Under the pieces are notes generated by a model. It saw nothing but the letters and a program-made list of their open reading frames with translations, was not told the DNA's origin and made no database searches. Positions 11,454 through 11,530 of a stretch of 64,000 nt of DNA are shown here, piece by piece. This DNA is from a virus. The stretch is taken from the IMG/VR virus record IMGVR_UViG_3300045988_079322; one strand, written 5' to 3'. Position 1 is the first letter of the stretch. Each line of letters begins with the position of its first letter. The translations under genes and the position numbers were made by a program.

Positions 11454-11530
11454 GTTCTCGTGGCGCAATAGGCAGACGCGCGTGGCTTAGAACCACGATG
11501 TTGCGAGTTCGACTCTCGCCGAGAACACCA
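11454..11530 (+). tRNA. class-I tRNA with anticodon UAG (Leu CUA/CUG anticodon, 5-nt variable loop), A73
   Basis: acceptor gttctcg/cgagaac, AC cgtgg-ctTAGaa-ccacg, var atgtt, T-arm gcgagttcgactctcgc, CCA. Confidence 0.6.

Follow-up and report, generated by a model that had tools for sequence, protein, structure and literature searches.

Short-arm tRNAs with leucine anticodons in the tRNA array of an uncultivated phage

The 64,000-nucleotide stretch analysed here, referred to as the window, comes from the IMG/VR virus record IMGVR_UViG_3300045988_079322 and is part of an uncultivated phage of ~115-150 kb in which TAG is a sense codon and which carries more than 30 tRNA genes. The window genes lie on the + strand, the GC content is ~37%, and ARAGORN places 30 tRNAs and one transfer-messenger RNA (tmRNA) on the same strand between 10.0 and 28.8 kb. 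Three members of this array, with the anticodons UAG, CAA and UGA, combine leucine or serine anticodons with a variable loop of 4-5 nt. Taken as a whole, the explanation that we consider likely is that the UAG and CAA genes are tRNALeu genes in which a 5-nt loop has taken the place of the long variable arm (type I); judged by its sequence, the UGA tRNA resembles a serine tRNA in none of the tested features but G73.

The three genes and their fold

The initial annotation had described three tRNAs of class I length with Leu or Ser anticodons beside normal class II Leu(GAG, UAA) and Ser(GCU, AGA, UGA) tRNAs, and both ARAGORN and Rfam bear this description out (Table 1). With the Rfam model RF00005, whose gathering score is 29 bits, the UGA, UAG and CAA genes reached 59.6, 59.8 and 59.8 bits, respectively (E ~7e-11). 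All three are well-formed class I cloverleaves with four helices, a 7-nt anticodon loop containing U33 and a conserved T loop. The discriminator bases were also as claimed, A73 in the UAG and CAA genes and G73 in the UGA gene. The positions of the UAG and UGA genes were correct, while the CAA gene had been started at 28487, 9 nt too early.

Could a long variable arm be hidden in an alternative fold? In all three genes the 4-5-nt loop is followed immediately by T arm, 3' acceptor strand and encoded (A/G)CCA; therefore, no long arm is concealed, and the better long-arm fold that had been named as a possible refutation is impossible. The UAG and CAA genes thus lack the long variable arm of the class II architecture, which is a structural hallmark of tRNALeu, not an identity determinant for the leucyl-tRNA synthetase (LeuRS) of E. 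coli (PMC9976931).

Table 1 Short-arm tRNA genes and other features of the window
Feature	Position	Strand	Characteristics
Predicted type I (short-arm) tRNALeu(UAG)	11454-11530	+	77 nt, 5-nt variable loop AUGUU, A73, CCA; ARAGORN and Rfam; predicted to read CUA and CUG
Predicted type I (short-arm) tRNALeu(CAA)	28496-28572	+	77 nt, 5-nt variable loop UGUUU, A73, G1.U72, CCA; ARAGORN and Rfam; predicted to read UUG
Class I tRNA with anticodon UGA	10170-10243	+	74 nt, 4-nt variable loop, G73, CCA; ARAGORN and Rfam
Class II tRNALeu(GAG)	11629-11715	+	reads CUY; ARAGORN; Leu model 60.5 bits despite the inserted-arm penalty
Class II tRNALeu(UAA)	20060-20145	+	reads UUR; ARAGORN; Leu model 66.6 bits
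Class II tRNASer(UGA)	27050-27139	+	canonical UCA/UCG decoder; ARAGORN; Ser model 64.4 bits
Class II tRNASer(GCU)	13472-13563		ARAGORN
Class II tRNASer(AGA)	17575-17662		ARAGORN
tRNA(UAU), class II-like tRNAIle	10013-10107	+	AUA decoder; 25-nt variable region with 4-bp stem
ARAGORN Glu(CUC) and Met(CAU); weak class II tRNATyr(GUA)	12784-12860, 13148-13222, 20249-20333	+	Glu(CUC) and Met(CAU) below the Rfam gathering score; tRNATyr(GUA) 32.4 bits with Rfam
tmRNA	16370-16685	+	mid-array; tag peptide DNDYFENYLAA
ROOL RNA (Rfam RF03087)	18994-19589	+	full-length, 350 bits; between tRNAGln(UUG) and tRNAGln(CUG)
tRNA with insert	19856-19976	+	Rfam 50.9 bits; ~42-nt insert in the anticodon-arm region; labelled Ser(GCU) with intron by ARAGORN
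tRNA-like gene with anticodon CAU	21525-21597	+	acceptor UGCAGAC/GUCUGCA, A73-CCA, unusual T loop UCCAACU
CUA amber suppressor tRNA	27798-27872	+	U1.U72, G2-C71, G73
DUF2828/DUF7788 protein gene and adjoining gene	28894-33229	+	506 aa; 811-aa protein with major-vault-protein shoulder and repeat domains
Open reading frame interrupted only by TAG	38953-39870
Open reading frame interrupted only by TAG	51413-52864		10 in-frame TAGs
Open reading frame interrupted only by TAG	60028-60981		11 in-frame TAGs

Leucine identity, homology and codon meaning

The elements on which E. coli LeuRS relies are A73, U8:A14, the A15:U48 trans-Levitt pair, the placement of G18G19 and A20a; the sequence and fold of the arm are irrelevant, and arm-less variants are still active (PMC9976931). 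Both the UAG and the CAA gene possess U8, A14, the A15:U48 Levitt pair, a 4-nt alpha region, G18G19, A20a, A22, a 3-bp D stem and A73. The UAG gene has an alpha4/beta3 D-loop with C13.A22, and in the CAA gene U13 and A22 pair. A signature of A15, U48, A73 and a non-Watson-Crick 13:22 combination was counted in 83 related loci: it was present in 48 of 50 class II Leu tRNAs and in 11 of 12 unique short tRNAs with Leu anticodons, compared with 9 of 407 tRNAs belonging to other isotypes. The UAG tRNA of the window shows all four features and the CAA tRNA three, its U13-A22 pair making it the one exception among the 12. Neither tRNA has G3:U70; thus, the alanyl-tRNA synthetase (AlaRS) is excluded.

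The comparison of isotype with anticodon proposed in the initial annotation was carried out with home-built covariance models, which replaced earlier position-weight and 1-nearest-neighbour classifiers working on ARAGORN-parsed positions (accuracy ~84-89%). The training set of the Leu model comprised 44 class II tRNALeu from loci other than the window, their arms cut back to 5 nt and their anticodons masked; the model was searched over 9-30 kb of the window with filters off. Its top four hits were exactly the four genes with Leu anticodons, headed by the two short ones: CAA 75.1, UAG 74.5, UAA 66.6 and GAG 60.5 bits, followed by the best non-Leu tRNA with 57.3 bits. Glu and Ser models built in the same way gave the UAG gene 48.9 and 50.4 bits and the CAA gene 53.3 and 49.7 bits, respectively. 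Since the Leu model ranks the UAG and CAA genes first, isotype model and anticodon agree for both. The nearest neighbours of both genes by the 1-nearest-neighbour method were likewise class II Leu tRNAs.

Homology points in the same direction. The closest non-trivial relative of the UAG gene is an 84-nt class II Leu(UAG) tRNA (L009:2048) that has 46 of 55 core positions in common with it, including a near-identical D arm and an identical anticodon arm, and anything else reaches 35/55 at most; the phage carrying this relative encodes a DUF2828 protein 68% identical to that of the window. The CAA gene lies in a conserved order, Leu(CAA)-Cys(GCA)-DUF2828 gene, in which the same slot is filled by an 82-87-nt class II Leu(CAA) in at least 10 related loci. 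It agrees with this syntenic class II Leu(CAA) at 40/55 core positions and is slightly nearer to type I Leu(CAA) genes with the same UGUUU loop, sharing 46/55 positions with that of a Mycobacterium genome and 44/55 with that of Pirellulaceae. On these sequence comparisons, both an in-place deletion of the arm and a replacement by a circulating type I gene are possible origins of the CAA gene. The variable-arm length of class II Leu tRNAs in the relatives is graded, from 17 down to 10 nt.

The genes bear marks of constraint. Among phages that share only 79% identity in the flanking DUF2828 protein, the CAA gene does not differ at all (100% identity). Between the UAG gene and its counterpart in the relative L003 there are 8 differences: two compensatory pairs (four positions), two changes that give rise to G.U pairs and two in loops. 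Across 13 short Leu tRNAs of different lineages, 99.2% of the cells in stem positions are paired, double changes occur in 18 of 20 pairs, and G1, U8, A14, A15, G18, A22, U48 and A73 are invariant. This covariation lends backing to the cloverleaf of the Leu-type genes.

A further question is what the codons concerned mean in the phage. In 19 window genes with orthologues in up to 81 loci, the residue aligned with each codon was determined, leaving out the orthologue codons themselves in question. The majority residue was Leu at 70% of 79 TTG sites, 69% of 78 CTA sites and 55% of 31 CTG sites; at the control codons it was Leu at 77% of 109 TTA, 72% of 152 CTT and 63% of 54 CTC sites. No alternative residue was enriched at the TTG, CTA and CTG sites in this comparison. 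For TCA (42 sites), Ser was the majority residue at 62%, and for the controls TCT and TCC at 57-65%. Because CUA, CUG and UUG occupy conserved Leu positions, missense decoding, which the initial annotation had entertained for all three tRNAs, is not supported as the dominant meaning: these codons and UCA match Leu or Ser as frequently as the control codons. CTA, CTG and TTG together make up 357 of the 1057 Leu codons of the window (34%), and UCA makes up 12% of its Ser codons.

As the LeuRS elements are all retained in the UAG and CAA tRNAs, and LeuRS ignores the anticodon and, in E. coli, the arm, we infer by analogy that the host LeuRS would charge both with leucine. They would then decode CUA/CUG and UUG, respectively, as Leu and, with the class II GAG and UAA tRNAs, complete the phage's own Leu decoding set; the four tRNAs jointly cover all six Leu codons. 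The suggestion of short-arm isoacceptors completing the codon set is thereby well supported for UAG and CAA by identity elements, Leu model, homology and synteny, and conserved Leu codons, and is not supported for UGA, whose body is not Ser-like and which is redundant. No open reading frame of LeuRS size is present within the window, where the search for a phage LeuRS was limited to open reading frame size.

Several observations weigh against this interpretation. Charging by the host LeuRS is not guaranteed, because the E. coli enzyme failed on the type I tRNALeu(CAA) that occurs naturally in Streptomyces coelicolor (PMC6614811). The core-position model put the CAA tRNA as Glu above Leu, and only 27 of 92 short Leu-anticodon tRNAs scored best as Leu, in both cases with position-weight or nearest-neighbour classifiers that discriminate moderately. 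By minimum free energy the CAA tRNA folds into a long hairpin and not into a cloverleaf, although such folding proved uninformative here (z-scores -0.6 to -2.9). Low-level ambiguous decoding would be compatible with the codon conservation data. Finally, no feature of the UGA tRNA points positively to an amino acid.

The UGA tRNA and alternative explanations

All acceptor positions pair in the well-formed UGA tRNA (7/7, one of them G.U). With a GC content of 35% it is rich in A and T; its acceptor stem starts U1-A72, U2-A71, and its anticodon stem is composed entirely of A-U pairs. It has neither a long arm nor G2-C71, and the long variable arm is the principal determinant for seryl-tRNA synthetase (SerRS) (PMC9976931). 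With the Ser model it scored 41.9 bits (rank 19), and the three true Ser tRNAs scored 52.8-64.4 bits despite the insertion penalty that the trimmed arm costs them; this model discriminates poorly, placing a Cys (70.3 bits) and a Lys (65.3 bits) tRNA above true Ser, and was used only for the low rank of the UGA tRNA. The Leu model gave 38.9 bits and the Glu model 56.7 bits, the latter within the bulk (true Glu, 84 bits), and nearest-neighbour identity to any isotype was at most 0.60. Since a class II tRNASer(UGA) is encoded at 27050, the UGA tRNA is redundant for decoding.

Its D arm, UAGUC.AA.GGUU..GAC, matched mostly Glu(UUC/CUC) (31 of 74 unique sequences) and Lys(UUU) (14 of 74) tRNAs in IMG/VR. 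The identity elements of E. coli tRNAGlu comprise U11:A24, U13:G22, a 4-nt variable loop, the UUC anticodon and G1:C72; the D-arm features and the 4-nt loop are present in the UGA tRNA, and the UUC anticodon and G1:C72 are not. A derivation from tRNAGlu or tRNAGln was considered, as the D arm and U1-A72 fit, but was rejected, the score with the Glu model being unexceptional.

Class I UGA tRNAs of this kind are encoded by at least three further phage lineages (L085:4542, L088:4008 = L089:6487, and L011:620 with an 8-nt loop), one of them directly upstream of a class II Ser(UGA); the search pattern required a UGA loop, so that the conservation of the anticodon is partly built in. Our best guess is that the UGA tRNA is not an efficient Ser acceptor but a relic, a decoy or a minor mischarged species. 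A more specific version, which is conceivable if on balance doubtful, holds that it is charged with an amino acid other than serine, or is an uncharged decoy for a factor directed at the anticodon loop, leading to low-level misreading of UCA or to titration of a host nuclease or modification enzyme. The body that is not Ser-like and the recurrence of class I UGA tRNAs with the same D arm would fit this, as would the anticodon loop AUUGAAA, which resembles the CUUGAAA of class II Ser(UGA); however, no identity set of an aminoacyl-tRNA synthetase fits, UCA sites are conserved as Ser, the built-in part of the anticodon conservation reduces the weight of the relatives, and those with other anticodons look degenerate.

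The latter form an AT-rich, tRNA-like family (L058:1175, L069:874, L063:2449, L002:11246, L213:933, L186:2922) with a near-identical D arm (UAGUCAAAAGGUUAAGAC), a 4-nt variable loop and, where inspected, a similar T arm. The anticodons are ACA, UCC, GCA, UAA and UUA, the imperfect acceptor stems start with A, U or C, and CCA is absent; this family could consist of decaying copies or have another function.

Why was the arm of the Leu tRNAs lost? We infer that a deletion tolerated by LeuRS, combined with the shared ancestry of mobile tRNA sets, would be sufficient. An adaptive cause, compatible with the reading of the two genes as arm-reduced tRNALeu, is that the loss removed the target of host defence nucleases cutting class II variable arms and so left the phage with a nuclease-proof Leu decoder; we regard it as rather unlikely. 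Precedents exist for tRNATyr, whose variable loop is cleaved by retron-Eco7 and Septu, and the tRNATyr of phage T5 escapes by means of a distinctive variable loop (PMC13096335). Moreover, phage clusters and long bacterial tRNA arrays, both mobile contexts, abound in short-arm Leu tRNAs, and the graded arm lengths of class II Leu tRNAs in the relatives would fit this cause too. However, neutral deletion and shared array ancestry explain the pattern equally well, and class II Leu tRNAs coexist in the same phage. We also know of no nuclease that targets the variable arm of tRNALeu, which counts against this proposal. A broader form, in which arm loss is a widespread selected trait of mobile tRNA sets yielding nuclease-immune Leu decoders, with the UGA tRNA as a companion decoy or mischarging tRNA against a host factor directed at Ser-tRNA, appears unlikely.

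In this group of phages the length of the variable arm is strikingly changeable, towards longer as well as shorter forms. The tRNA(UAU) of the window (Table 1), located 63 nt upstream of the UGA tRNA, is long-armed, and UAU tRNAs with variable regions of 20-25 nt are also found in relatives. Further relatives carry an 87-nt class II-like tRNACys(GCA) that has U73 and whose arm measures 16 nt (17 copies, e.g. L005:9671, L009:9862, L058:9723), long-armed His (L075:3334, L080:2085), Thr and Lys tRNAs, and ten CUA suppressors with arms of 19-28 nt and G73 (e.g. L009:8237, L013:3072, L049:4567).

That the short-arm genes are decaying or non-functional copies, i.e., deletion pseudogenes in a redundant tRNA array, seems improbable. 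The tRNA arrays of these phages do contain many atypical genes, and the UGA tRNA, itself redundant with the class II Ser(UGA), has relatives with imperfect acceptor stems, drifting anticodons and no CCA. The compensatory changes in the Leu pair, both relative to L003 and across the 13 lineages, and the complete conservation of the CAA tRNA beside a diverged protein gene argue otherwise, as do the positions of the UAG tRNA as the phage's only CUA/CUG tRNA and of the CAA tRNA as one of two for UUG. The same form recurs in phages Wildcat and phi19:1 and in bacterial arrays, and the window UGA tRNA retains an intact acceptor stem, G73 and CCA. Least probable of all, to the point of being very hard to credit, is a non-leucine identity by which the UAG and CAA tRNAs would insert another amino acid at CUA/CUG/UUG in the manner of the TAG reassignment: the phage recodes TAG and has a CUA suppressor tRNA, class I architecture is atypical of bacterial tRNALeu, and the crude classifiers sometimes favoured Glu or Cys for short Leu-anticodon tRNAs, but the Leu model puts both genes ~17 bits above any non-Leu tRNA, they hold the full E. 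coli-type Leu identity set with AlaRS excluded, and their codons match Leu at control rates with no single other residue enriched.

Array context, distribution and known systems

The genetic code of the phage is relevant to the reading of its tRNAs. TAG is the sole interruption in many open reading frames (Table 1), a CUA suppressor tRNA is encoded, and TAG codons match mainly Gln or Lys in orthologues; on this sequence evidence, therefore, the phage is classed as TAG-recoded, with a predicted TAG-to-Gln (code 15-like) reassignment. The CUA suppressor and the class II Ser(UGA) have the same T arm and most of the acceptor stem in common. An origin of the suppressor from a serine tRNA was considered on this ground and dropped, as TAG aligns mainly with Gln/Lys, and its U1, G2-C71 and G73 agree with Gln. 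When the array was compared with cultured phages by Megablast, scattered tRNA matches only and no close relative were obtained. A large family of contigs with relatives of the phage's genes is present in IMG/VR, many of them longer than 100 kb. The identical CAA tRNA occurs on ~148 kb contigs binned with Eubacterium and Oscillospiraceae metagenome-assembled genomes, which is a weak hint at a host among the Clostridia.

Several other members of the array deserve mention. A full-length ROOL RNA and the tmRNA lie within it. The tRNA-like CAU gene, missed by ARAGORN and by Rfam at the gathering score (Leu model 39.6 bits, Glu model 50.3 bits), may be the missing elongator Met or Ile2 tRNA. The ARAGORN Glu(CUC) gene reached no more than 51.7 bits with the Glu-specific model. 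Directly 3' of the array lie the DUF2828/DUF7788 gene and its large neighbour; the DUF2828 gene is kept in more than 200 IMG/VR stretches.

Similar short-arm tRNAs, which the initial annotation proposed to seek in related phages, are found there in number. Among unique sequences from all fetched viral and bacterial tRNA-array loci, the viral loci contain 48 short and 91 long Leu tRNAs (48/139 short), 4 short and 86 long Ser tRNAs and 4 short and 38 long Tyr tRNAs; the corresponding figures for the bacterial arrays are 44 short and 6 long for Leu (44/50 short), 0 and 31 for Ser and 0 and 10 for Tyr. This restriction of arm loss to Leu fits the identity rules, because SerRS needs the arm and the E. 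coli-type LeuRS does not (PMC9976931). A blastn search with the CAA gene returned near end-to-end matches to annotated tRNA-Leu in Wildcat-group Mycobacterium phages, with ~81-82% identity to the CAA genes of this group over 73 nt, and in the Cellulophaga phage phi19:1, the annotated genes inspected measuring 73-74 nt; Cosmo, EniyanLRS, MrMagoo and Estes gave matches as well. The UAG and UGA tRNAs as queries yielded no cultured homologue. A pattern scan of GTDB located the same Leu(CAA) type in long tRNA arrays of Candidatus Solibacter and of Planctomycetota, among them a complete Pirellulaceae chromosome, and also in a Mycobacterium genome. In the Planctomycetota chromosomes (GTDB loci L097-L117, e.g. 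L113 and L117 = CP197412.1) there are up to 34 tRNA genes per 8 kb, with nearly all tRNALeu in class I and Ser/Tyr in class II form.

The premise implied in the initial annotation, that bacterial tRNALeu is always class II, is thus too strong, as S. coelicolor has a documented type I form (PMC6614811) and cultured phages contain annotated genes for short tRNA-Leu. According to a review of tRNA identity from 2023, tRNALeu and tRNASer are long-armed everywhere except in animal mitochondria (PMC9976931), and the type I tRNALeu of S. coelicolor was presented as a rare exception (PMC6614811). In our sample, by comparison, arm-less tRNALeu is common, accounting for about one third of the unique tRNALeu in viral loci and nearly all of those in bacterial array loci, and arm-less Ser and Tyr tRNAs are almost never seen. 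In the searchable literature we found only the S. coelicolor paper on the subject and no treatment of short tRNALeu from phages or tRNA arrays; the general pattern may be under-described. These tRNAs constitute a natural experiment on which class II features are dispensable and suggest a possible link to defence systems that cleave variable arms. They also raise a question, given that the S. coelicolor type I tRNA was not charged by E. coli LeuRS: for which host LeuRS enzymes is a short tRNALeu acceptable? For annotation, the short Leu genes are to be called tRNA-Leu and not isotype mismatches, and only the UGA tRNA might yet conceal something out of the ordinary.

Among known systems, the natural type I tRNALeu(CAA) of S. 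coelicolor offers a direct parallel. It has a 5-nt loop (including nucleotide 48), which is the minimum for good activity, occurs alongside class II tRNALeu isoacceptors and is leucylated by the single LeuRS of that species (PMC6614811). It differs in its loop, ACAGC with C48, whereas the window tRNAs have a U48 that pairs with A15; in addition, the S. coelicolor system does not use A73, which is invariant in the 13 aligned short Leu tRNAs, and the window genes are phage-encoded and include a UAG isoacceptor. Because the GTDB scan gave no Streptomyces match, the window tRNAs, judged by sequence, probably belong to a different lineage.

Closer likeness is seen in Wildcat genes 113/114 and phi19:1, which encode tRNAs of 73-75 nt with a UAG or CAA anticodon, A73, a 3-bp D stem and U48. 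In Wildcat, a short Leu(UAG) and a short Leu(CAA) gene, the same pair as in the window, lie next to each other, and phi19:1 has a short Leu(UAG). However, the hosts of these phages are Actinobacteria and Bacteroidota, and the phages are not TAG-recoded. The arrays of Planctomycetota, Acidobacteriota and Mycobacterium contain type I Leu tRNAs with CAA, UAA, UAG, GAG and CAG anticodons, their Leu(CAA) having 44-46/55 core positions and the UGUUU loop in common with the window CAA gene, and their Ser and Tyr tRNAs keep the arms; unlike the window genes, which lie on a phage, they are chromosomal, with 17-34 tRNAs within 8 kb. The short arm is not mentioned in the tRNA-array papers (PMC4758250, PMC8421152).

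Leucylation without a long arm is also known for animal mitochondrial and engineered arm-less E. coli tRNALeu, where it depends on A73, A14 and tertiary contacts that link the D loop with the T loop (PMC9976931). The former are served by a dedicated mitochondrial LeuRS and the latter are artificial constructs, whereas the window form is natural and would, by analogy, act in a bacterial cytoplasm beside class II tRNAs. A mismatch between structural class and anticodon characterizes the allo-tRNAs, in which class II bodies bear anticodons other than those of Leu or Ser. The same kind of mismatch in nev-tRNAs was used to argue for possible missense decoding (PMC3333845). Both represent the reverse case, a long arm with a foreign anticodon; in the window, such a mismatch is confined to the UGA tRNA, while in the UAG and CAA tRNAs body and anticodon agree, and these two genes join an already known form, the type I tRNALeu.

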